Assembly (NCBI GenBank): GCA_964014485.1
Contig: CAXHAT010000098.1
Span: 1-27,593 of the forward strand
Direction of reading: 5' to 3'
Origin: an uncultured Deferribacteres bacterium
Lineage (GTDB): Bacteria; Zhuqueibacterota; Zhuqueibacteria; Zhuqueibacterales; Geothermadaptataceae
DNA: 27,593 nt
The notes under the pieces are model-generated. The model had not been told where the DNA came from. It saw only the letters and a list, made by a program, of their open reading frames with translations, and ran no database searches. The translations under genes were made by a program, and so were the position numbers. Numbering within the stretch: position 1 is the stretch's first letter; every line of letters starts with the position of its first letter. Positions 7,329-25,455 of the stretch are shown piece after piece.

Positions 7329-8819
7329 TCAAGCTAGAATGTCGTGAATGACTTTGCCGTGTACGTCCGTCAGGCGGAATTCACGTCCTTGAAATTGGTA
7401 GGTCAATTTTTCGTGATCCAGGCCAAGCTGATGCAAAATCGTTGCCTGAAGGTCGTGTACATGAACGCGGTCTTTGGTCCCGGAATAGCCGATCTCGTCG
7501 GTTTCACCGTAAGAAAACCCGCGCTTTAAACCGCCGCCGGTCGCCCACATAGTGAAGGCGTCGCCGTGATGGTCGCGTCCGGCGTAAGGATTGTCGTTTC
7601 CGCCGCGATTTTCCAGCATCGGCGTGCGACCAAATTCGCCGCCCCAGACTACCAAAGTTTCGTCCAGCATACCGCGCTGTTTTAGATCGAGAACCAGTGC
7701 TGTCATCGCTTGATCCACCTCTTTGCAGCGCTCGACAAAACCAATATTAAGCGCTTCAAATTTGTTGCTGCCGTGTGAATCCCAACCGCGATGAAAAAGC
7801 TGGATAAAGCGCACGCCGCGCTCCGCAAGTCGGCGCGCTAAAAGACAGTTGTTTGCAAAAGAAGTTTGCCCCTGCTCCGTTCCGTAAAGTTGATGAATAT
7901 GTTCCGGCTCTTGCGAAATATCCATTGCTTCAGGCACGGACATTTGCATGCGAAAAGCCAGTTCATACTGCGAAATGCGCGAAAGCGTTTCTGGGTCGCC
8001 CATCTCTTCGTAATGCTTGCGGTTGATTTCGGAAATCGCTTCGACGGCCCATTTCCGCACGTTGCGGGGCACGCCTTTTGGGTTGGAGATATAAAGCACC
8101 GGGTCGCCGTGAGAACGGCATTGCACGCCTTGAAAAACGGACGGAAGAAAGCCGCTTCCCCAAACGCTTTTGCCTGCACTCGGCGCTGATTGCCCAGAAA
8201 CCAGAACGACAAAACCCGGCAAATTTTGGTTTTCCGACCCGAGGCCGTAAGTCACCCACGAACCCATCGAGGGCCGTCCCATTCGCGCGTGGCCCGTGTG
8301 CATAAAAAGCTGTGCCGGGGCATGGTTGAACTCGTCGGTGTGCATTGCGCGCAAAAATGTCACGTCATCAACAACGCCGGAAAATTTGGGCAGCAGATTG
8401 GAAACATACGCCTGACTCTCGCCAAATTTTTTGAACGTGGTTTGGTGGCCAAGCATTTTCGGCACGCCTTTGATAAAAGCGAAACGTTTGCCTTCGAGCA
8501 AGGAATCCGGGCAAAGCTCACCATTCAATTTTTGCAAATCGGGCTTGTATTCAAACAACTCCAATTGGGACGGCGCTCCGGCCATGTGCAAAAAAATGAC
8601 TGATTTCGCTTTTGGCGCAAAATACGGCGGACGCATCTTGAAGGGTTGCGTCATGTCAAGCATTGCAGCTTCAGCGCTCGTTTCGTTTTGAAACGGCGTA
8701 CAGCCCGTCAAGTTTGCAAGCGCCATCGCGCCGAGGCCGGTAGAACATTTCCTTAAAAAATGCCGTCGCGTCAGCGCGCGTTCATTAAGCAGAGTAAGTT
8801 CGCCGAGAAGTTTCATCAC
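7329..8819 (-). CDS. DUF1501 family protein (sulfatase-like fold, Tat-like signal)
   Basis: TRRHFL, AKSVIFLHMAGAPSQLELF, PSMGSWVTYGLGSEN.NLPGFVVL, CLLARRLAERGVRFIQL, GEFGRTP, GRDHH and RLTDVHG motifs. Confidence 0.93.
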   Translation of the reverse strand: MMKLLGELTLLNERALTRRHFLRKCSTGLGAMALANLTGCTPFQNETSAEAAMLDMTQPFKMRPPYFAPKAKSVIFLHMAGAPSQLELFEYKPDLQKLNGELCPDSLLEGKRFAFIKGVPKMLGHQTTFKKFGESQAYVSNLLPKFSGVVDDVTFLRAMHTDEFNHAPAQLFMHTGHARMGRPSMGSWVTYGLGSENQNLPGFVVLVSGQSAPSAGKSVWGSGFLPSVFQGVQCRSHGDPVLYISNPKGVPRNVRKWAVEAISEINRKHYEEMGDPETLSRISQYELAFRMQMSVPEAMDISQEPEHIHQLYGTEQGQTSFANNCLLARRLAERGVRFIQLFHRGWDSHGSNKFEALNIGFVERCKEVDQAMTALVLDLKQRGMLDETLVVWGGEFGRTPMLENRGGNDNPYAGRDHHGDAFTMWATGGGLKRGFSYGETDEIGYSGTKDRVHVHDLQATILHQLGLDHEKLTYQFQGREFRLTDVHGKVIHDILA

Positions 8820-11479: not shown

Positions 11480-12196
11480 ATGAAGCATTCGCAGGTTCTC
11501 AACTACATTCACGACTTAAAAAACCCCGAAGCGTTGGTGGAAATTTCAAACATCGCAACACAGCGGTACAAGGAACTTCTCAACCAGTCCGCATTTTCAA
11601 TTAACAACCTTGACGTCGGAGCGTCAGTATCTTTTTTCCTTCGGGGCGGAGAAAAATTGCGGGGCGTTATTGAGAACAGAGGCAGGGTTAATTTTCGCGT
11701 CAAAGTCGAAGACGGCAGAACATTCCGCGTACCCAGGGGATTGGTTTTTGGTGAAAACGCTCGTCCGAAACGTTTCGAAAGCTCCCGAAAATCTGACGCC
11801 GTTTTAAAGCAAGTGATCGAGCACGTTATTGAAATCACAGAGTCGCTTCTTGCAAAACACAAAATCACATTGCCGGTCATTTATAAGCCCAATGTTTGGG
11901 CCACGCATTTTCGCCCAAAAAAGCATATTCAATATGGCGAGCTTTGTCTTCGCAAACAAATCGCTGAAAGCCGAACGAACGACAGTGTCAGTTCAAACTT
12001 AAAGCGTTTCGGACTTCTTTCTCACGCAAGTTCCAGGCTTGCAATGTTAATTTGTCACGAAACGGCTCATGCAGTGACATTCCTAAAATATGGGAATCGA
12101 GTCAAAGCGCATGGCGGAGAATATTATCACACACTCGGAAATCTTGTTGCAGAAGAATATGACGGTATACTGAAGCGGATGACTAAAATTTTATAG
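11480..12196 (+). CDS. Hypothetical protein with SH3/KOW-like N-terminal region and SprT-like HExxH zincin motif
   Basis: VG..VSF..RGG..LRGVIE..GRVNFRVK.EDG..FRVP beta-barrel pattern; LICHETAHAV...HGGEY (HExxH plus distal HG). Confidence 0.65.
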   Translation: MKHSQVLNYIHDLKNPEALVEISNIATQRYKELLNQSAFSINNLDVGASVSFFLRGGEKLRGVIENRGRVNFRVKVEDGRTFRVPRGLVFGENARPKRFESSRKSDAVLKQVIEHVIEITESLLAKHKITLPVIYKPNVWATHFRPKKHIQYGELCLRKQIAESRTNDSVSSNLKRFGLLSHASSRLAMLICHETAHAVTFLKYGNRVKAHGGEYYHTLGNLVAEEYDGILKRMTKIL

Positions 12197-12247
12197 ACCG
12201 ACAAATATTGCATTCTGCTATTGAACTCACTTACCCTGCGGAGAACA

Positions 12248-12658
12248 ATGAGTATTGAAAATATCGCCAATCCTGTCACCGACGGTGACGTCGTTCTGAT
12301 TTATGTTGACGAAAAACCTGTTTTTTTTGCACGTGTCGAGGGCTTTGAGTCAGATAAGAAGCCCAAATGGTGGCAAGTTCGGCTGCTCATTTTGCAAGTT
12401 CCCTTGCAAGAAGTCAATTGGATTTTACGGCGTGAACAAGTCAACGGCGAACCATTTACAATGCAAGGTACTCCGATGCGGATTGAGAAGGTTCTCAGCC
12501 CGGAGTCTAAATCGCTTTCAGTCGCAACGCCCGCAAGCGAAGAGGCGGAAGAGAATGGGAACGCGGTTCAGCAGGAGCCGGATGAACAATCATCAACCCA
12601 GCCCGCAAGGATACTTTCACTTGGCGGCGACAAAAGCGACGGGACTAACTCCGGCTAA
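12248..12658 (+). CDS. Conserved-looking hypothetical protein with acidic disordered tail
   Basis: ATG at 12248 with GGAG SD; GDVVLIY.DEKP.FFARVE....D.KP.WWQV.LL.LQVP.....WILR...NG.PFTM.G. Confidence 0.75.
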   Translation: MSIENIANPVTDGDVVLIYVDEKPVFFARVEGFESDKKPKWWQVRLLILQVPLQEVNWILRREQVNGEPFTMQGTPMRIEKVLSPESKSLSVATPASEEAEENGNAVQQEPDEQSSTQPARILSLGGDKSDGTNSG

Positions 12659-12740: not shown

Positions 12741-13460
12741 ATGGGTAAGCCCAAACAAAGAGTACGATTAGGAGCTGGTCGGATGCTGCCTTCGATGTGG
12801 GGTAACGAGCAAGAATTCTTGAGGTACTGCGCAGAGCATCCCGATGACGCCGAAGCCTGGAACATGTTTTATGATGCGTTCGACGAATTCATCATCTTGA
12901 TCTCCTACAGGGAAACAGAGCGCTATTTTGGCCCGTCAGGCTTTCAATCCAACGGCCCGACCGTTCAAGACGTGGTACAAGATACTTATTTCAAGTTGGT
13001 CAAGGATGATTGCGAGGTTCTAAAGCGGTTTAGAGGCGATTCGTTCGTCGCTTTTCGTAGTTTTCTTGCCGTAATGATTCGCAATCTGGTGGGAAATCAC
13101 AAAACGGCCGCCAATGCGGCAAAGCGCCCCAAAATTGATCCGGGTCCAAATTCGCAAGACAACGAATATCTTGAGCGTCAGCTATTCGATTTGTCTTATC
13201 GCCAAAAAAACCTCGAGAGTTTGAGAGACGAAACGGTCAACTATAAAATGTTGTACTTGGACGTAAAAAAGCTTTTAGATGAATATGCAAAGTTAGACGA
13301 CCAAAACGCAAGAAACGCACTTATTGCAAAGTACTATTTTCTCGATGATCTTCCCGTGTCTGACATTGCTGAAAACTATTTGTCGGATATAAAGGAGAAG
13401 ACAATCAGTAATAACATCAGCATGATGAAACAATATCTCAAAAAGAATTTGGGAGGATAG
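12741..13460 (+). CDS. ECF-type RNA polymerase sigma factor (divergent)
   Basis: Region 2: DAEAWNMFY...VQDVVQDTYFKL...LKRFRG...FRSFLAVMIRN. Region 4: YYFLDDLPVSDIAE...EKTISNNIS..KQYLK. GGGGAG SD; followed by a zf-HC2 gene. Confidence 0.85.
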   Translation: MGKPKQRVRLGAGRMLPSMWGNEQEFLRYCAEHPDDAEAWNMFYDAFDEFIILISYRETERYFGPSGFQSNGPTVQDVVQDTYFKLVKDDCEVLKRFRGDSFVAFRSFLAVMIRNLVGNHKTAANAAKRPKIDPGPNSQDNEYLERQLFDLSYRQKNLESLRDETVNYKMLYLDVKKLLDEYAKLDDQNARNALIAKYYFLDDLPVSDIAENYLSDIKEKTISNNISMMKQYLKKNLGG

Positions 13461-13604
13461 TCTGCAATTTCCGCAGATCGACGAACGGAAAGACGTTTTT
13501 GCTCCAGTTTTCGCATGAAAATATTTACTGGACAATCACACTGAAGCTATTTATTACTCAAGCTTATCCAAGCGCGATAAATTAGAAAAATTAATTAATT
13601 TAGC

Positions 13605-13633
13605 GGGAAACTTCCCCAAAATATATTGTCCAA
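13605..13633 (+). promoter_or_regulatory. Candidate ECF-sigma promoter upstream of the anti-sigma gene
   Basis: GGGAAACTT-N14-GTCCAA resembles the GGAACTT / GTC-TCAA ECF consensus; preceded by an AT-rich palindrome AAATTAATTAATTT. Confidence 0.4.
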
Positions 13634-13678
13634 TGATCCGTTAGCCCGGATTTAACAAACAATAAAGGGGAATTAATC

Positions 13679-14674
13679 ATGATAACAAACGATCCAATGT
13701 ACCATCCATCTCTTGAAAAACTATACGATTTTCAGCAAAAAAACCTTTCAGACGATGAGCAAGTTAAAATAGAAATCCACTTGTCTAAATGTGATACTTG
13801 CCTGGAAGAATATTCATCTTTTGTTCGCAACGCCACAACGCCTGCAACGCTGGAAGAAAAACACGCCATTCAGAGAATGCGTAAATTGACCAAAGATGAG
13901 CAAGTCGAAAAAATAATGACGTATGCCGGGCGGAGCGCCCCAGCAATCGCCGCCGACCCGCCTCGCGGTAATACGCTTATGGCAATTGCACGCACAATTT
14001 TTCAGAGTCAAAATACGCTCAAATTGGTCGGATTTGCAGCCGCTACAGTGCTAATATTCGTCTCCTGGAAAATTATGAACCCATCCTTTGAAATGCATAA
14101 AGTCGACGAGAAAATAGATAAAATCGACCAAGATATTACCAGCGCCTATAAACCTAAGGCCGATTCTCCGGTTCGTTTCATGAACAGCACTCCCCCACAC
14201 CCTCTTGGGGATGAGATGGGTGGATCAGCTTCGGACGCATTGATCGCGCAGTTGCGCAAGGACGCCGAAAGCGGTAGCCAAACAGATTCGCTGCATGCCA
14301 TACGCGTTATACTCAAAAAACTCATTATTGGCGGGAACACATCGGAAGCGCAAAAGATGGCGAACAGCCTGTACAACTTCAAAGACAAGGGCGATCTGCA
14401 TTTTCTCGTCGATTTAGCCTCTGCAAATATTGAACTGGGGAACTCACTTCGCGGCACAGAACTTTTCAAGTTAGCGAATGAAAAATACCCCAATTCCGCT
14501 TCCGTTCTTTATAGTCTTGCCCAACTCGCCTGGGAAAAACAAGAACAAGGCAAAGCGATAGCCTTAATGCGGGAATCAATTAAACATGAAACTCACGCAA
14601 GATGGGCAACCGTTTCAGAGGGTATAGTAGAAAAATGGGAAGCTGAGATTAAAAATCGGGAAAAGCTGCATTAA
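13679..14674 (+). CDS. Anti-sigma factor: zf-HC2 (ZAS) domain, single TM helix, C-terminal TPR
   Basis: H9...H34-LSK-C38-DT-C41; TM LVGFAAATVLIFVSW; TPR-like YPNSASVLYSLAQLAWEKQEQGKAIALMRESIK; AAAGGGG SD. Confidence 0.85.
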   Translation: MITNDPMYHPSLEKLYDFQQKNLSDDEQVKIEIHLSKCDTCLEEYSSFVRNATTPATLEEKHAIQRMRKLTKDEQVEKIMTYAGRSAPAIAADPPRGNTLMAIARTIFQSQNTLKLVGFAAATVLIFVSWKIMNPSFEMHKVDEKIDKIDQDITSAYKPKADSPVRFMNSTPPHPLGDEMGGSASDALIAQLRKDAESGSQTDSLHAIRVILKKLIIGGNTSEAQKMANSLYNFKDKGDLHFLVDLASANIELGNSLRGTELFKLANEKYPNSASVLYSLAQLAWEKQEQGKAIALMRESIKHETHARWATVSEGIVEKWEAEIKNREKLH

Positions 14675-14880
14675 ACACCAACTAAAGCATCAAGGTTTAA
14701 AGGGGCGTCGCTCAACTTCACACGATCATCTCAAACGCGCTCTTTCTATTATCGCTTAACTCAAAAAACGTGTTCGAATGAAATTTCGGAAAATGAGCGC
14801 AGTCGAAATCTCATTATTGCGGATTTGAGTTCAAGCTAAACATCGCTTCTTAGTCATCACTCAACAAAGAGGGGTAAATT

Positions 14881-16377
14881 ATGCAAAAGTCCAACCATCA
14901 TGCGTCGCCTTTCCGTGAACGTACGCCGTTGAGCAACGCAAATGAGGCTGACAAAATTGCTGTAGAGCTACTAGAGTTGATTTTGGGAAGAATGACCAGC
15001 GCGAAGTTTGACGCTGCTGAGATCGAAAAATCAGTCGCACATTTAGAAGCGTCGCCTCAGCACAAAGTCGACCTGCCGAAAGCTGATTCATCTGTTTCAC
15101 AGACGAATGTCGCCGCTTTCGAAACTGCCTTGCGGAGCTTTCATTGGTACCTGCCTTTCGACAAAGCCGCGCGAAGCAGTGAAGAGCTTGATCATGCCAA
15201 AAGTTTAGCAGAAAAAGTGGATAACTACCGGAAAACCGACTACTGGTTGCCTTTAACTGAATATCTTGGCGATTCAACTGTCGAGCAACGCAGAGCTTGG
15301 CAGGCTGCCAGGTACGCACATCTGGAAGCCCAGAGGGCTCTCCATCAAGGGGATTTCGCCAGCGTGAAAGATAACGCCATTTATGGATATCAAAAATTGT
15401 CGGATGCACCGGACGAAAGGTTATTTCTAAACCTTAGCGCGCGTGTACAATCTGCGCTCGCTCTCGGGGACAAAGCAATCAATCTGGCAGTCTTTCTTGG
15501 CCAATGGTTATTTAACAAAGGCAAAAAAATTGGATTTCATATGCTTTCTGCGAACGTCGCTTATAATATGGGCGACCAACTGATTCTTAACGGGAGGTTC
15601 GACGAAGCAAATCACTGGCTAATAGAAACTGAGAAGGTCGCAACTAGCTGGCCAAACATCCGGAAGATTGGTTATTACAAAACCTTTGCTCTTGAACGAA
15701 AAGCAGTTGTCGCCAGAAGGCGCCGAGATTTGACAAAAGCCAGAAAACTTTTGGAACAATTCAAAAAAGAAGTTGATGCAGCCAAGAATGAGAAATGGGG
15801 GAACGAGAAGAAAGCTGAGATTCTTTATTACCAAGGTCTTGGGTTGATTTATGAAGAGGACAAAAAACACGATAAGGCGGAAGCAGCTTTTCATCAAGCA
15901 CACTCTCTTGCCTCAGCCAAGCCAACGAACGGGCAATCCAAGTATGAAGACGCTTACAATGCATGGGCGGCCAAGACTGCACTTGCCTGCAACAGCTTGC
16001 TAGCACGGCAAGACTCAGCCAAAACACTCAAACACCTTGAAGACGCCGTAGACGTCGGCTCCCAAATTCCCGGCTTTCTGAACGCAGACAGACGATGCAC
16101 CGTCGAGATTTATAGAGCGGAAGCGTTTATGAATAACGGCAATGATTCTGACGCCGAAGCCTGTTTGCAGAGAGCCGAAGAATTGCTGGAAGCTGTAGAT
16201 TCGCCTCGCCTTACGGCTCGTAAAAGAATAACGGACGCACAATTTCTCATCAATCGCGGCGAAAAAGCGGAAAGTGATCAGCGTTTTGATGAAGCGGAAC
16301 AGATATCCGCTGAACACGGCATTTACAATTACCTCGAAATGATCAAAGGCTTGCGAAATACAGATCAATCAAGCTAA
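14881..16377 (+). CDS. TPR-repeat protein, paralog of the TPR region of the downstream CHAT protein, lacking the protease domain
   Basis: TPR patterns (AYNMGDQLILNGRFDEA; YQGLGLIYEEDKKHDKAEAAF); collinear shared motifs with 16734-19892; GAGGGG SD. Confidence 0.85.
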   Translation: MQKSNHHASPFRERTPLSNANEADKIAVELLELILGRMTSAKFDAAEIEKSVAHLEASPQHKVDLPKADSSVSQTNVAAFETALRSFHWYLPFDKAARSSEELDHAKSLAEKVDNYRKTDYWLPLTEYLGDSTVEQRRAWQAARYAHLEAQRALHQGDFASVKDNAIYGYQKLSDAPDERLFLNLSARVQSALALGDKAINLAVFLGQWLFNKGKKIGFHMLSANVAYNMGDQLILNGRFDEANHWLIETEKVATSWPNIRKIGYYKTFALERKAVVARRRRDLTKARKLLEQFKKEVDAAKNEKWGNEKKAEILYYQGLGLIYEEDKKHDKAEAAFHQAHSLASAKPTNGQSKYEDAYNAWAAKTALACNSLLARQDSAKTLKHLEDAVDVGSQIPGFLNADRRCTVEIYRAEAFMNNGNDSDAEACLQRAEELLEAVDSPRLTARKRITDAQFLINRGEKAESDQRFDEAEQISAEHGIYNYLEMIKGLRNTDQSS

Positions 16378-16409
16378 ACTCACTTCTAATCTTTCAAAGG
16401 AGAAAAAGC

Positions 16410-16490
16410 ATGATTCTGAACATCAAAGTTGTTATGACCGAAGCAAGCGGCGGCGGCGGTCCAATCGACGATCCGCCGGATCCGGATTGA
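16410..16490 (+). CDS. Unannotated 26-aa peptide MILNIKVVMTEASGGGGPIDDPPDPD
   Basis: AAAGGAG SD 7 nt upstream of the ATG at 16410, 32 nt after the TPR gene stop; TGA at 16488-16490; GC-rich Gly/Pro/Asp codons within AT-rich intergenic DNA. Shorter than any ORF in the track. Confidence 0.75.
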   Translation: MILNIKVVMTEASGGGGPIDDPPDPD

Positions 16491-16733
16491 TTGACTGAAT
16501 TTGCCTCGAGCAATCAAAAAAACATCGGCAGAGAATCCATTTCAAAAAATGTGACTTCTCTGTCGATAAATCCTATATTTTTCATAGAAAACTCACCCAT
16601 TTTTCAACCCGCCCCGGCATTCACTATTTGTCTTCCCTTCTTTGGCTTTTTTGAGCTTTCTCCTCAACAAAAATTATGTTATTCTTTATTTACAATTTTT
16701 GCATAAATAAACGACAATAGCACTTTCCTAACT

Positions 16734-19700
16734 ATGGAAAATCAAAAAACCAAGCGGGTCTTGAAAATTCAAAAAGCTTTGGGCGTTACTCTACTTCTCT
16801 CTCTTCTTATTCATCAGGCATGCATATTCCAGGAAACAAATTCGCTGAAAAAATATAATCGAGCCGTCTTGGCAGCCGGAACGCAAGAAGAGACTGAAAA
16901 AATTGTCGATGAAGCTCTCAACTTTATCACCACTAAAGAGTTATTTGAAGATTCAGAAAATTGGGTAGTGCAAGCTTACAAAGATAGTTGCGAAAAAATT
17001 CTCCTTGAAATTGTTGACGAAATCAATTCTTTAAACTCCATAATTTCAGACAGCGCTTCGATCAAGCTGTCAGAACTCCCTTGGCGACGAAAATTTTTCT
17101 TTGCACTACCATATCTGCGAACAGACTTCCCCGCCGATTCAGCCGACAAAATCATTAAAAACGCTGCCGCTATTCTTGAAGCTCCGCAATTCTCAGATTA
17201 CAATACCAGACTTAATGACGTTTTAGCCAAGCAAGACTCCTTGTATTACGCCCCGCATATCGTACAATTCTGCGCCAATATGAGCGGCAGATCGTTTGAC
17301 GACGGTAATTTCAAGCGTGCTAAAAACGCAGCGGCTTATGGGATACAGCTTGGAGTGAAACTTCCCGATCAGCGAAGAATGTTGCCTCCCCTGGCACGAT
17401 ATCAAGCGGCTGTTTTTGCAGATGAGGGCCTTTTTCATTTAGTAAAAGCAATTGGCGAACGAGTTGTACGCAAATCTATTGACGGCAACTATTTGGGAAC
17501 CGCTCTAAATATGCTCTACAATCTCGGCGATCAGCATATTCAGACCGAAGAACTGGAAGAAGCATTGCGTTATCTATCATCTGCTCAAGAATTCCTAAAA
17601 GAGCAAAAAGATAGACTTAGCCCGAGAACGCAGGAATGGTACGGCAAGCGCCTTTTGGAAAGAATGGCAGTCGTGTATAGAAAATTTGGCGAGAATAAAC
17701 TCGCTCAACAGAACCTTCAGGAATACGAAAAGTTAGTAAAAACTGGCAAAGAAAACGTACTTCTGCACAATTTCCGAGGCTTGAACTATCGGAATGTCGG
17801 CCAATTCGCCAAAGCAAAAGACGAATTTCTCGCTGGGATCAAAATCGCATCACGGCAGGAAGGTGGCGGAGTCTTAGACATTCACAACTTGTTCGTACTC
17901 ATTCATAACCTGGCTGAATTGCATCTGGAGTATGATTTTTACGATGATGCGCTAAAAGTTTGGGAGTCGTGGAAACAGTACGAAGCCTTTGCTCCAGACT
18001 TAACGAACTATCCCGGAAAAAACGCATCACCATTGCAAAACAACGAGGCCAACTTGCACGGCGACCAACTCGATGCTCAGGCGTTGGATAAAGAAGCTGA
18101 CGCTTCCTCCATCAAAGGGTTTATGAACGTCCCAAGAAGGATTGACCGCGATATATTAGGTGCAGAAATTTTCTATAAGCTTGGGCGAAAAGAAAAAGCC
18201 GAACTTTTGATTTCAGACCTGCTGGACAATGTTGACGCTCTCAATTTGAAAAAACACCAGATCGAACTTGCACTGTCTGCTTCGCATATCATTGCTTCTA
18301 TTAAGGGCTATGAAACAGCTAGAAGTCGACTTTTAGACGCCGCAAACATCGCAGAAGACGACGGTTCGTTCCTGAGAAGAATTGATCTAAAGATTCTTGA
18401 ATTTGAGCTTGCGCAGTCGTTCCAAAAGGCTGATGTATCAGTAGCCGATTTCGCAGACCTTATCAGTGAGATTGAAGAAAAAGGATATTATAGCCTTTTA
18501 CCAAAAGCTATAGGTTTGGTCATCAAGTTTGCCTGGAAAACTCAACAAAGGAATCTGGCCCTCGAATATGCTCAAAAGATGTTTGACGTCGTGAAGGATG
18601 TTTCCGAACAGCAAGAAACGGTTGAAGGCGCCACCTTTTACAACCACAGTACAGACGACGGCGTCAAAACAGCCATAGAATGCTTGTTGCGATTTGGCGA
18701 TGATGAAGAGGCGTTTCTCCAGCTTAACCGATTCAAGAACATGGCGATGCGAAATAAATTGCTCGCAACAGACGAAGGCGCATTAGCTTATTCAGATATT
18801 CAACCTTTTTTGCGTCCCGGTGAAACTTTAATTGATTATTTTTCAGGTGATACGCTTTATGCCTTTGTTGTTCAAAGAGACGGGTTTTCTGTGAAGCGGT
18901 TTGACGTAACGCGCCTTGAGTTGCAACGCTTGACGAACGAATACTTCAACATTGTTTCCGACGAAGGCTTGCTAACAGGTCAGCAGGGCGGCAAAACATT
19001 TTACAGGTCGGAATATTTAAAGACTTTGGAAAAATCTCATCAATTGTATAAAAAAGTTGTACAAAAAATAGACGTGGATATTCCAGATTCGGAAAGGCTT
19101 TTAATCGTTCCGGACGCGCACCTTTACAGTCTGTCGTTTGCTTCGTTGGCCATCGAATCGGCGGAGAAAAGAAATGACCAGTTTCTTATCGAAAAGCATG
19201 CCATTGCTTATCTTCCAGGCGCTTGGGCGTTGAAAAACCGGCAGCAGCCAGTTGATTCTACGCCATTCAATTCAATCGTAGCTTCACTCTCAACAAACAT
19301 GCGCGGTGCGGAAGCGCTAAACGAAAAAACCGCATCTCTTTTTCCGGCGCTCCATCGCGATATCAGAAAATCGTGGAAAGACAAGGAAGAATTTTGGGCT
19401 GCAATAAAAACCGACCCAGACATTTCATTGCTTTTTGCGCACGCATTCGCGAGTTGGGAAAACCCGCAGCAATCGTTCATTGAGCTTCCTCTTTCCGACA
19501 GCACTTTGGACGCATTATACGCTCATGAGCTTGAAGGTATTGGAGTAATCAATAGTCGTCTTGCCATTCTGGCTGGCTGTGAAACCATAGGCGTAAGAAC
19601 ATATTGGGGCTCTGGGCTTGTTGGTCTGCAGCGCTCGCTTATGCTCGCCGGAATCGACCAAGTTGTTTCGACAAATTGGAAAGTTTTTTCCATTGAAGCT

Positions 19701-19892
19701 GCAAACACAATAGCAGATTTTTTAGGTGAGTTCAAAAATGAACGCGACCCGATTATCGCATTGCAAAAAGCGCAAATCATGGCGATAGACAGGCTCAAAA
19801 AAGATCGCAATGTTCATTTCCCTTTTCCGCATATTTGGAGCGCATACACTTTGTATGGTTTAGAACAAGACAATGCGCCAAGCACGAATTAG
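16734..19892 (+). CDS. TPR-CHAT (caspase-like, clan CD) protease with N-terminal signal/anchor
   Basis: CHAT motifs ETLIDYF...LYAFVV, LLIVPDAHLYSLSFASL, FLIEKHAIAYLP, LFAHAF (His903), LAILAGCET (Cys949), GLVGLQRSLMLAG...VVSTNWKV, ALQKAQ, PHIWSAY; hydrophobic N-terminus ending in QAC. Confidence 0.92.
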   Translation: MENQKTKRVLKIQKALGVTLLLSLLIHQACIFQETNSLKKYNRAVLAAGTQEETEKIVDEALNFITTKELFEDSENWVVQAYKDSCEKILLEIVDEINSLNSIISDSASIKLSELPWRRKFFFALPYLRTDFPADSADKIIKNAAAILEAPQFSDYNTRLNDVLAKQDSLYYAPHIVQFCANMSGRSFDDGNFKRAKNAAAYGIQLGVKLPDQRRMLPPLARYQAAVFADEGLFHLVKAIGERVVRKSIDGNYLGTALNMLYNLGDQHIQTEELEEALRYLSSAQEFLKEQKDRLSPRTQEWYGKRLLERMAVVYRKFGENKLAQQNLQEYEKLVKTGKENVLLHNFRGLNYRNVGQFAKAKDEFLAGIKIASRQEGGGVLDIHNLFVLIHNLAELHLEYDFYDDALKVWESWKQYEAFAPDLTNYPGKNASPLQNNEANLHGDQLDAQALDKEADASSIKGFMNVPRRIDRDILGAEIFYKLGRKEKAELLISDLLDNVDALNLKKHQIELALSASHIIASIKGYETARSRLLDAANIAEDDGSFLRRIDLKILEFELAQSFQKADVSVADFADLISEIEEKGYYSLLPKAIGLVIKFAWKTQQRNLALEYAQKMFDVVKDVSEQQETVEGATFYNHSTDDGVKTAIECLLRFGDDEEAFLQLNRFKNMAMRNKLLATDEGALAYSDIQPFLRPGETLIDYFSGDTLYAFVVQRDGFSVKRFDVTRLELQRLTNEYFNIVSDEGLLTGQQGGKTFYRSEYLKTLEKSHQLYKKVVQKIDVDIPDSERLLIVPDAHLYSLSFASLAIESAEKRNDQFLIEKHAIAYLPGAWALKNRQQPVDSTPFNSIVASLSTNMRGAEALNEKTASLFPALHRDIRKSWKDKEEFWAAIKTDPDISLLFAHAFASWENPQQSFIELPLSDSTLDALYAHELEGIGVINSRLAILAGCETIGVRTYWGSGLVGLQRSLMLAGIDQVVSTNWKVFSIEAANTIADFLGEFKNERDPIIALQKAQIMAIDRLKKDRNVHFPFPHIWSAYTLYGLEQDNAPSTN

Positions 19893-19928: not shown

Positions 19929-20600
19929 TTGAACGCTTCATTCTCCGTTATCACCCTTTTCTTTTCCTCTTTGTTAACGCAAAACCCACAAGGGCTTGAG
20001 AGTCCAACTCGTGACAACCCTTTGCTCATCGACCAAGAAAAGCGAGAAACTCAAATTCTCGCACAATTTACGCCCAAGCGATTTTCGAATCATCAAAACG
20101 ACATGGCGGGCTATCACGCCGTTGTCTGGAGAGGCGGAAAGGCGAGTGACTTGGCGCTTTTTAAGAGCTTCGTTAGTGATAGAGAAACGCTTGCCGCCCT
20201 GCAAAAAATAGGCGGCGTTCCCGGAAACAATCTTTCACAGAAAACATGGGATGACCGCAAAAACCGCAAAAGCAGTGCGGCGGACGCACGCATTCTTGGG
20301 ACGCGCATCGAAATGCTCGTCACTTGGGAAGGCTTGCAAAAGCCGCTCTCGTTGGCGGAAATCTTGAATGATCCAGGGGGCAAGGGCATCGATTTGCGTT
20401 TTGGCGGTAATAAAGAAATCATTAAAAACTGGCAATCCGGCTGCATTGTTTGCCTGTATAGCTGCCCTGGAAGCAAAGCAGGAAATCACGCCTACACAGT
20501 GCGTGATTTTGTCGACAAGAAAACGCGGTTTACCGTTGATTTTGAGCGAGTTCCAAAAGAGAAAACGGACGTTGTACTTATTTTCAGGCTTGTAGAGTAA
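19929..20600 (+). CDS. YdjY-like exported protein with Cys cluster
   Basis: AL..IGG.PGNNL, VTWEG, FGGN and SGCIVCLYSCPG motifs; TTG start uncertain. Confidence 0.65.
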   Translation: MNASFSVITLFFSSLLTQNPQGLESPTRDNPLLIDQEKRETQILAQFTPKRFSNHQNDMAGYHAVVWRGGKASDLALFKSFVSDRETLAALQKIGGVPGNNLSQKTWDDRKNRKSSAADARILGTRIEMLVTWEGLQKPLSLAEILNDPGGKGIDLRFGGNKEIIKNWQSGCIVCLYSCPGSKAGNHAYTVRDFVDKKTRFTVDFERVPKEKTDVVLIFRLVE

Positions 20601-24371: not shown

Positions 24372-25379
24372 ATGAGACGACAAAGCATTTTTCACAGTTT
24401 AAAACTCGCAATATTGACGGCATGTATCGCTGGGTGCGGCGGGCAAGAGACCGACGACGGACAAGTCACAATCGCCGTGATTCCGAAAGGCACAACGCAT
24501 GTTTTTTGGCAGTCAATTCACGCTGGGGCCCGGAAAGCTGAAGCCGAAACGGGAGTTAAGGTTATTTGGGTCGGCCCGGAAAAAGAAGATGACCGCCAAC
24601 AGCAAATTGCGCTGATTGACAATCAGGTGATCAATCAAGTTGACGGCGTCGTCGTAGCGCCGCTTGATGAAACTGCGCTTCGTCGTCCCATTCGCGACGC
24701 CGTAAATCGCAGCGTGCCGGTTGTTATTATGGACTCCGCTTTGAAAGACGCTGATGACATTTACGCAAGTTTCGTTGCGACCGACAATGTGGAAGGCGGA
24801 AAATTGGCGGGCAGACAGATGGCGGAGATGTTAGGCGGCAAGGGCAGAGTCATCATGCTGCGGCTCCAGGAAGGCTCGGCCAGTACGGAAAAACGTGAGA
24901 ACGGCTTTCTTGAAGCCATCGCCGAGTTCCCGGATATTGAAGTTGCAAGTTCTGAGCAATACGGCGGGGTCACCACAGCCTCGGCGCAACAGGCGAGCGA
25001 GAATCTTTTGCTGCGTTTCAAGGATTCTGACGGAAATCTGACCATTCACGGCGTTTTTTGCCCCAATGAATCGACGACGCACGGCATGTTGCAAGCGCTC
25101 CGCCGACAGCGACTCGCCGGAGGAATGAAATTCATCGGCTTCGACGCAGCGCCAGCCTTGATTGAAGGCATGGAAAAAGATGAAATTCACGGTTTGGTGG
25201 TGCAGGATCCTTTTAAAATGGGCTATCTCAGCGTCAAGACCATGCTCGCCCATCTCAATGGCGAAAGCGTTGAAAAGCGCATCGACACCGGCGTTTATTT
25301 TGTGACCAAATCCAATTTGTCAGAACCGAATATTCAAGAACTTGTTGCGCCGGACTTGGCGAAGTGGCTGGAGCAGTGA
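24372..25379 (+). CDS. Sugar ABC transporter substrate-binding lipoprotein (RbsB-like)
   Basis: Lipobox IAGC; IAVIPKGTTHVFW, VATDNVEGG, FIGFD and VVQDPFKMGY motifs. Confidence 0.93.
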   Translation: MRRQSIFHSLKLAILTACIAGCGGQETDDGQVTIAVIPKGTTHVFWQSIHAGARKAEAETGVKVIWVGPEKEDDRQQQIALIDNQVINQVDGVVVAPLDETALRRPIRDAVNRSVPVVIMDSALKDADDIYASFVATDNVEGGKLAGRQMAEMLGGKGRVIMLRLQEGSASTEKRENGFLEAIAEFPDIEVASSEQYGGVTTASAQQASENLLLRFKDSDGNLTIHGVFCPNESTTHGMLQALRRQRLAGGMKFIGFDAAPALIEGMEKDEIHGLVVQDPFKMGYLSVKTMLAHLNGESVEKRIDTGVYFVTKSNLSEPNIQELVAPDLAKWLEQ

Positions 25380-25405
25380 GCAGTGAGCAGTGAGCAGTGA
25401 GCAGT
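25371..25405 (+). repeat. Heptamer tandem repeat (GAGCAGT)x5
   Basis: Five perfect copies overlapping the stop codon of the binding-protein gene. Confidence 0.95.
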
Positions 25406-25455
25406 GAATCAATTTCTATCAGATTTGTACAAATACAACCGCGAGAATTCTGTTT

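Follow-up and report, generated by a model that had tools for sequence, protein, structure and literature searches.

A conserved CRISPR-independent sigma factor, anti-sigma and TPR-CHAT protease locus as a possible split counterpart of the DdvA/DdvS switch

The subject of this report is a cluster of five consecutive genes on a 27,593-nt stretch of DNA (hereafter the window; contig CAXHAT010000098.1 of assembly GCA_964014485.1) from an uncultured Deferribacteres bacterium, which GTDB places in the Zhuqueibacterota. The genes encode a sigma factor of the extracytoplasmic function (ECF) type, a zinc-binding anti-sigma (ZAS) protein, a tetratricopeptide repeat (TPR) protein of 498 residues (TPR498), a 26-residue peptide and a TPR-CHAT protease (Table 1). 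We found that the sigma, anti-sigma and CHAT genes recur side by side in related genomes, and we suggest that they may constitute a split version of the single-polypeptide anti-sigma DdvA, which acts on the sigma factor DdvS in Myxococcus xanthus. A preliminary description of the window had proposed a CRISPR-independent signalling system, modelled on the type III-E CRISPR protease Craspase, in which the peptide, the TPR protein or both perhaps switch on the CHAT protease, which then cuts the anti-sigma. Its account of the locus held: all five open reading frames (ORFs) were present where it had placed them, on the + strand, and its statement that the window lacks cas genes and a CRISPR array agreed with PADLOC, domain and repeat scans. 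The cluster had no PADLOC matches (those elsewhere in the window were generic), no window ORF carried a cas domain (the remaining genome was not searched for cas genes), and the repeat scan of the window returned two trivial tandem repeats and no CRISPR array.

The earlier proposal had hinged on conservation of this neighborhood in homologous loci. Best matches to the window CHAT protein were taken in 41 related genomes, stretches of at most 20 kb surrounding 28 of these were examined, and all ORFs of these loci, a non-random sample picked by CHAT similarity, were scanned with hidden Markov models (HMMs) built from a first set of loci. Loci cut by a contig end in or before the CHAT gene (L032, L039, L040, L049) or within the anti-sigma gene (L031) were left out of the count. 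Sigma and anti-sigma genes were found directly upstream of the CHAT gene and co-oriented with it in 19 of the 24 judgeable loci, the window included, and these loci came from several genera and two families; two of the genomes used are unpublished (G023, with L031, and G016, with L044 and L051). The pair was missing upstream of CHAT in L042, L053, L054, L055 and L056, four of which hold the most distant CHAT paralogues. The genome of the window (G000) contains two more sigma/anti-sigma/CHAT clusters, on contigs C99 (L037: 3422-11934) and C77 (L038: 8485-13500). A search for related loci in general genome contigs gave one unrelated Saprospiraceae CHAT only. The recurrence of the arrangement in related genomes is far beyond chance, and it is well supported that sigma, anti-sigma and CHAT form a functionally linked, conserved unit that is independent of CRISPR.

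Around this core, three architectures were distinguished. The commonest, complete in 12 loci, has the order sigma, anti-sigma, X, Y, CHAT, Z, where X, Y and Z are additional genes; a minimal form consists of sigma, anti-sigma and CHAT only (L038, L050, L051, L052). One of the two extra clusters of G000 is of the six-gene form, and the other is minimal (L038). In the third architecture, a TPR paralogue of about 500 aa and a mini-ORF replace X, Y and Z; it was seen in the window and in L029, L031 and L032 of genus g8; L047 is cut. Protein X (L037:5520-7697 and homologues, alignment A4) has an N-terminal module with two transmembrane (TM) helices, similar to Z, and an invariant HExxH...DEY motif. 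It had no Pfam match, and a profile of it found no match in PDB; as a lead only, 27 of its 30 nearest Protein Atlas clusters were M64-like metallopeptidases (score 0.91). Protein Z (107-165 aa) starts with a conserved tail of acidic, Gly and Pro residues, contains two hydrophobic helices and ends in YN-L-x-x-RR-x-N-LFGL, and the membrane parts of X and Z matched each other weakly. Lys and Arg residues numbered 64 on the N- and C-terminal sides of the Z helices versus 21 in the loop, a charge count that weakly favors a cytoplasmic N-terminal tail. Separately, L042 (7651-11643) encodes a 1330-aa ORF with a weak Y match and a CHAT domain, possibly a Y-CHAT fusion; sigma and anti-sigma genes were not found within 5.4 kb upstream of it.

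The CHAT protein matched PF12770 over aa 767-1042 with 97.9 bits (cut-off 24), preceded by a predicted signal-anchor helix at aa 15-33 and a helical repeat solenoid at aa 39-672. As the preliminary description had noted, the catalytic dyad is retained: His903 (nt 19440-19442) and Cys949 (nt 19578-19580) were invariant in 25 of 25 aligned homologues, so that the protein combines a CHAT domain with the catalytic His and Cys that define the caspase-fold class. An AlphaFold2 (AF2) model (mean predicted local distance difference test score, pLDDT, 79.9; predicted TM-score 0.76) showed residues 2-35 as a single helix before the solenoid. Its best fold match was Csx29 (Z 32.8); the separase protease domain followed with Z 28.4 and a root-mean-square deviation of 3.2 over 326 residues, and separase cleaves after Arg. 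DdvA (8rot_A) was matched with Z 20.2 over 607 residues (Foldseek E 3.4e-11), and no sequence similarity to DdvA was detected by phmmer against PDB. In 8 of 9 full-length CHAT proteins examined, N-terminal Lys or Arg residues are followed by one hydrophobic helix, with the Kyte-Doolittle threshold passed in 6. By the positive-inside rule, the TPR-CHAT part of the protease is probably periplasmic, given this N-terminal signal anchor of its own. A word-based homologue search with CHAT aa 600-1052 returned 3 proteins only, one of them at 29% identity, and was uninformative on fused forms.

The sigma factor consists of sigma2 and sigma4 only, as in ECF (group 4) members of the sigma-70 family, and gave an ECF model match: TIGR02937 aligned to aa 38-237 with E 1.9e-10 and 40.6 bits, slightly below the curated 42.9, and Pfam Sigma70_r2 reached E 0.0026 only. 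A profile of 17 homologues (A3) matched solved ECF sigma factors over both domains (8z6g_B, 2e-11; 6in7_B, 3e-11; RpoE 1or7, 1.7e-7), and PDB searches with the single CHAT, anti-sigma and sigma sequences gave nothing useful.

In the anti-sigma, a zinc motif H34-x3-C38-x2-C41 is accompanied by H9, a possible fourth ligand at a site occupied by Cys or His in relatives; this is the motif of class I ZAS proteins, in which H-x3-C-x2-C follows an upstream Cys or His ligand. The three motif residues were conserved at 90% or more among 17 anti-sigma homologues. Pfam gave no match to the window protein, which fell below every curated cut-off, an RsrA-like model included (E 1.3e-4). By comparison, zf-HC2 (PF13490) passed in 5 of 7 full-length homologous anti-sigmas scanned and was absent from L036 and from the cut L031 copy. 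The anti-sigmas of genus g8 (L029:10703-11827, L030:14635-15834, L047:2729-3853) carry two tandem N-terminal H-x3-C-x2-C motifs instead of one. One hydrophobic helix was found in the window protein (aa 114-132, Kyte-Doolittle), and the family profile revealed a C-terminal TPR domain of three repeats (aa 186-330). In the AF2 model (pLDDT 82), helices at the N-terminus are followed by one long helix that covers the TM and juxtamembrane part (114-156), then by an extended segment (157-185) and seven TPR-type helices. From family knowledge, we infer that the sigma factor is bound and inhibited by the ZAS N-terminus.

Three anti-sigma residues, R166, A293 and W309, were invariant in the 17 homologues. 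Arg166 (nt 14174-14176) lies in the extended, non-helical linker at aa 157-185, about 33 residues past the TM helix, and its usual context across the family is [DE]-x-x-R-[LP]-[SA]-G-G-[YF]. The anti-sigma TPR domain lies beyond the TM helix and the CHAT protein has a predicted anchor, so any cut would be periplasmic. The preliminary description had also suggested structure prediction of CHAT with the anti-sigma. We predicted the complex of CHAT 256-1052 and anti-sigma 134-331 with alignments of our own making, and the result lent weak support to the pairing: it scored 0.40, against 0.00 for the highest of 3 controls. Contact agreement between runs was at least 85%, and partner pLDDT was at least 75; the mark applied is reached by 116 of 157 solved complexes and by 2 of 215 mismatches. 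Because the structure of fused DdvA has been solved, the pass may reflect likeness to it. On the strength of the invariant linker Arg and this weak complex prediction, CHAT may cut the anti-sigma, with Arg166 or its vicinity as the most likely cut site in the linker.

This arrangement is closest to that of DdvA/DdvS (PDB 8rot). DdvA is a ZAS anti-sigma with a periplasmic TPR-CHAT region, which acts as a dimer in trans, the dyad of one protomer facing the linker of its partner; CHAT site-1 cleavage before RseP has been proposed for it and not demonstrated (PMC11506125). Shared with the window locus are the ECF sigma, the single-pass ZAS protein and a His-Cys TPR-CHAT region, here predicted to be periplasmic, close to a long linker after the TM helix; Arg166 falls at the position where, in DdvA, a segment of the linker is turned towards the dyad (PMC11506125). 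In contrast to DdvA, which is one polypeptide, the anti-sigma with its own small TPR and the anchored TPR-CHAT protein are encoded here by separate genes, the window anti-sigma ending after its three-repeat TPR at aa 331. The locus family also has parts beyond those of DdvA, namely the peptide and TPR paralogue or, in the commoner form, X, Y and Z, and no CBASS/CRISPR regulon lies near the window locus. DdvA-like fused proteins have been reported from Myxococcota and one Comamonas only (PMC11506125).

A candidate target of the sigma factor was found in the gap between the sigma and anti-sigma genes, which is unusually long across loci (65-297 nt). An element consisting of GGGA, GAGA or TGAG, a spacer of 16-19 nt and TGTC followed by T or C occurred in this gap in 17 of 19 loci, with 0.16 expected on the same strand of the same loci, a pattern count only. 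The element lies 26-270 nt ahead of the anti-sigma start across loci; over the whole genome, with both strands counted, it occurs at 0.088 per kb. No second copy was found in the window before TPR498, the peptide or CHAT. The element looks like a candidate sigma-dependent promoter of ECF type for the anti-sigma, TPR, peptide and CHAT genes. A scan for sigma-70 promoters and terminators gave no excess over shuffles.

The TPR paralogue is related to the sensor region of the protease. TPR498 matched CHAT aa 119-340 with E 2.7e-9 and the CHAT-family HMM with 1e-46; its domain matches were TPR only, and Protein Atlas placed it near generic TPR clusters. Hydrophobicity analysis found neither a hydrophobic helix nor an export signal, and TPR498 is probably cytoplasmic. 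Paralogue-type ORFs were present in 4 of 167 genomes of the phylum; the g8 copies are 27-28% identical to TPR498, have intact ORFs of about 500 aa and start with the sequence found after the membrane helix of g8 CHAT proteins. A search of metagenome contigs with the paralogue alignment found no locus. In a tree of the sensor region, the paralogues of the window and of g8 grouped with the g8 CHAT sensors at 98/98 support, and the window CHAT joined this group, on a long branch, at 96/96; the order within the group was not settled. By the tree, the matches to the CHAT region and the absent helix, TPR498 is a copy of the CHAT sensor solenoid that lacks the anchor and the protease domain.

The mini-ORF between TPR498 and CHAT begins 7 nt after a GGAG and ends with TGA, a stop codon that a second assembly of run X1 shares; runs X2 and X3 gave no sequence over 16200-16900. 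In L029, L031 and L032, the gap between paralogue and CHAT contains a counterpart of 22-24 aa, likewise with GGAG or GGAGG and ATG. All four start with a short hydrophobic run, after which come one acidic residue, a stretch of Gly and an acidic/Pro terminus. In the g8 loci, the mini-ORF and its ribosome-binding site were better conserved than the downstream DNA, with third-position changes that keep the residues. The peptide aligns to the Z N-terminus (S-G-G-G-G-P-I-D-D-P in the window, G-G-G-G-P-E-D-D-P in L035, L040 and L045), and a six-frame translation of the 8.4-Mb genome contains the motif GGG-x0-1-P-x-[DE][DE]-P a single time, in the mini-ORF, the pattern having been written from this consensus after the peptide had been seen. 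The Z-tail HMM did not score the window peptide significantly (the best match was the L031 peptide, E 3), so the link to Z rests on alignment, position and motif uniqueness. The Z HMM matched nothing else in the window. In L031, a C-terminal Z remnant directly follows the paralogue (E 1.1e-12), in a highly fragmented genome (G023) in which misassembly is possible. Reading frame, start signals and motif have all been retained although the paralogues share only 27-28% identity, and we conclude from these sequences that the mini-ORF is real, that it probably arose from a Z gene, at its 5' end, and that selection has probably kept it.

TPR498 and the peptide are a rare, linked pair that travels together. 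The trigger role that the preliminary description gave them fits poorly. The hydrophobic start of the peptide, 8-9 residues, is too short for a signal peptide, and the peptide is probably cytoplasmic; lacking export signals, the two cannot simply trigger a periplasmic protease and are poor candidates for its direct triggers.

We propose that the locus is a split counterpart of a DdvA/DdvS-type switch in which CHAT would cut the anti-sigma and release the sigma factor, a proposal that we hold to be about evenly balanced between right and wrong. The ECF sigma would be tethered at the membrane by the zinc-finger N-terminus of the single-pass anti-sigma, as family knowledge suggests, and the anti-sigma linker and three-repeat TPR are predicted to be exposed to the periplasm, which the separate protease, held by its N-terminal signal anchor, would also face. 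Upon sensing of a signal by the long TPR solenoid, the His903/Cys949 site would cut the linker at or near Arg166, as the site-1 step, and intramembrane proteolysis and cytoplasmic degradation would then free the sigma factor. The freed sigma would read the element between the sigma and anti-sigma genes and thereby boost the genes that follow, from the anti-sigma through the TPR paralogue and the peptide to CHAT. TPR498 and the 26-aa peptide would stand in for the metalloprotease X, Y and the two-TM protein Z and probably act in the cytoplasm, where they may form a receptor and its peptide ligand.

This can be extended to a two-compartment proteolytic switch, an extension that we consider doubtful, with a periplasmic arm (anti-sigma TPR and linker with anchored CHAT) and an exchangeable cytoplasmic arm, represented here by a soluble receptor-peptide pair that would set the threshold or reset. 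In most relatives, the cytoplasmic arm would be the membrane-tethered HExxH metalloprotease X together with Y and Z, the acidic Gly/Pro tail of Z facing the cytoplasm. In the lineage of the window, the CHAT sensor solenoid would have been copied without anchor or protease, and the Z tail would have become a free 26-residue peptide.

Several observations weigh against a split DdvA/DdvS-type switch. The topology rests on hydrophobicity and charge only. The linker of the window protein has Arg166 without the S-G-G-Y/F that follows it in most homologues. The complex prediction is weak and did not return the interface, and scores of 0.60 or less were seen in just 18 of the 157 solved complexes and in both mismatches that passed. 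The count for the promoter-like element is partly circular, since the gaps that were searched had also supplied the pattern, and a crude bipartite k-mer search upstream of the 19 sigma genes detected no shared motif (5, versus 3-5 in shuffles). The roles given to the peptide and TPR paralogue are guesses. For DdvA itself, cleavage by CHAT likewise remains hypothetical, and mutating the dyad gave no phenotype in the absence of signal (PMC11506125).

The protease could instead be the output of the system. The anti-sigma owns a conserved TPR sensor domain, and the anti-sigma, TPR, peptide and CHAT genes, which all lie downstream of the element, look like sigma targets; on this account, the anti-sigma TPR would sense the signal, the freed sigma would induce the operon, and CHAT would cut other envelope proteins, in remodelling, defence or cell death, and leave the anti-sigma alone. 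We regard this as somewhat unlikely, because the three-gene core is fixed despite a sigma identity of 18-27%, which is typical for mutually acting parts, and cleavage would agree with an invariant Arg placed in an exposed linker and with the precedent of fused DdvA, although the two accounts are compatible. A Craspase-like cytoplasmic switch, which follows the analogy of the preliminary description, with CHAT cutting a cytoplasmic part of the anti-sigma upon triggering by the peptide and/or TPR paralogue, draws on Csx29 as the best fold match of the protease and on the absence of export signals from both proposed triggers, which would then share the compartment of the protease. Against the cytoplasmic protease that it implies stand the hydrophobic helix, with positive charges on its N-terminal side, at the start of nearly all CHAT proteins whose N-terminus is available, and the corresponding AF2 helix; moreover, the paralogue is exactly the sensor region minus this helix, and the window has no cas or Csx30-like gene. 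We consider a cytoplasmic switch very improbable.

TPR498 and the peptide might be debris, a partial duplicate and a truncated Z, in a system that consists of sigma, anti-sigma and CHAT only. The minimal three-gene form exists, the Z remnant behind the L031 paralogue makes the paralogue look inserted into Z, and the HMM of the Z N-terminus gives the window peptide no significant score. Set against this are the persistence of the mini-ORF with its ATG and Shine-Dalgarno sequence in all four paralogue loci in spite of the divergence of the paralogues, the loss of the rest of Z from the window with 26 codons kept, the uniqueness of the motif in the genome and the intact paralogue ORFs, and we judge debris to be unlikely.

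Other known systems are more distant. Type III-E Craspase (Csx29, Csx30 and CASP-sigma) likewise links a TPR-CHAT protease to an ECF-like sigma and its inhibitor; it is cytoplasmic and activated through RNA-guided Cas7-11, in contrast to the signal anchor and transmembrane ZAS inhibitor found here (PMC10028731). Its defining set, Csx29 with Cas7-11/gRAMP, an array and Csx30, was not found in the window. In regulated intramembrane proteolysis of the DegS/RseA/RseP type, a single-pass anti-sigma also receives a periplasmic site-1 cut and is then passed to a site-2 protease (PMC11506125). The proposed site-1 enzyme here would be an operon-encoded caspase-fold cysteine protease instead of a PDZ serine protease, and the window has no site-2 gene. 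ECF54 of Actinobacteria also places an ECF sigma beside a TPR-repeat CHAT protein, but is linked to subtilase and carboxypeptidase-regulatory-like proteins and has no anti-sigma (PMC7826278); the window cluster has an anti-sigma and neither subtilase nor CarboxypepD_reg. As a lead only, RRNPP receptors such as NprR and Rap resemble TPR498 and its neighbor in pairing a cytoplasmic TPR protein with a tiny adjacent peptide gene, and the CHAT TPR solenoid matched NprR with Z 22.2 and Rap with Z 19.6, values that are common among helical repeats. The window pair differs in having no DNA-binding or phosphatase domain, no peptide export signal and no link to an Opp-type importer, and thus shows neither the effector domain nor the exported pro-peptide of RRNPP systems. 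In the accessible parts of the literature, which do not extend to the later ECF classification groups, we found no account of a separately encoded, exported CHAT protein with a sigma/anti-sigma pair.

Table 1. Features of the sigma/anti-sigma/CHAT cluster and the gene that follows it, in window coordinates.
Feature	Coordinates	Strand	Basis or remark
ECF-type sigma factor, 239 aa	12741..13460	+	TIGR02937, family profile and synteny
Bipartite promoter-like element (GGGA, 18 nt, TGTCC)	13605..13631	+	52 nt before the anti-sigma ATG
Predicted single-pass ZAS anti-sigma, 331 aa	13679..14674	+	Zinc motif, TM helix, TPR profile, AF2 model
TPR paralogue TPR498, 498 aa	14881..16377	+	TPR_12 and TPR_2 over cut-offs
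Shine-Dalgarno GGAG (16399-16402) and 26-aa mini-ORF (16410-16490)	16399..16490	+	Counterparts in L029, L031, L032
Predicted membrane-anchored TPR-CHAT protease, 1052 aa	16734..19892	+	PF12770, invariant dyad, AF2 fold
YdjY-domain protein, 223 aa, TTG start	19929..20600	+	NF040466 E 1.1e-21, above cut-off

Eight + strand ORFs lie between 11480 and 20600 of the window. The YdjY gene begins 36 nt past the CHAT stop, and the region directly 5' of the sigma gene (11480-12658, +) holds a SprT-like ORF with HExxH (Pfam 24.7 bits, below cut-off) and a 145-aa ORF (ORF145) of no family; all three were rejected as parts of the module, as tblastn found no counterparts in L029-L036. No Rfam family was matched in the window, and repeats within the cluster were unremarkable. 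The stretch occurs in three DNA runs, all from one marine metagenome study, and no RNA runs containing it are listed. Elsewhere in the window, a type II toxin-antitoxin pair (1912-2681, -) consists of a PIN-domain toxin (PF13470, E 6e-23) and a MazE/AbrB-like antitoxin whose genes overlap; a partial ORF cut by the window edge (3-824, -) has a weak PADLOC match to a TIR effector (E 1e-6) and no Pfam match; and a DUF1501 protein (E 4.5e-154) is encoded at 7329-8819 (-), of a family that we take to be typical for Planctomycetes-like genomes. A perfect 7-nt tandem repeat, GAGCAGT in 5.3 copies (25371-25407), runs from the end of a sugar-binding protein gene into the gap before an ABC ATPase gene.

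CHAT-driven release of an ECF sigma is not known beyond the hypothesis put forward for fused DdvA. With a natural split version, the protease could be produced, mutated and titrated independently of its proposed substrate, and the present locus offers Arg166 as a candidate cleavage residue and a candidate target promoter as a reporter. In at least one little-known marine phylum, the core is widespread and its accessory parts are exchanged as sets, and the conserved mini-ORF may be another example of a membrane-protein gene whose 5' end gave rise to a functional peptide. Thus, the locus probably represents an unstudied mode of protease-driven gene activation.

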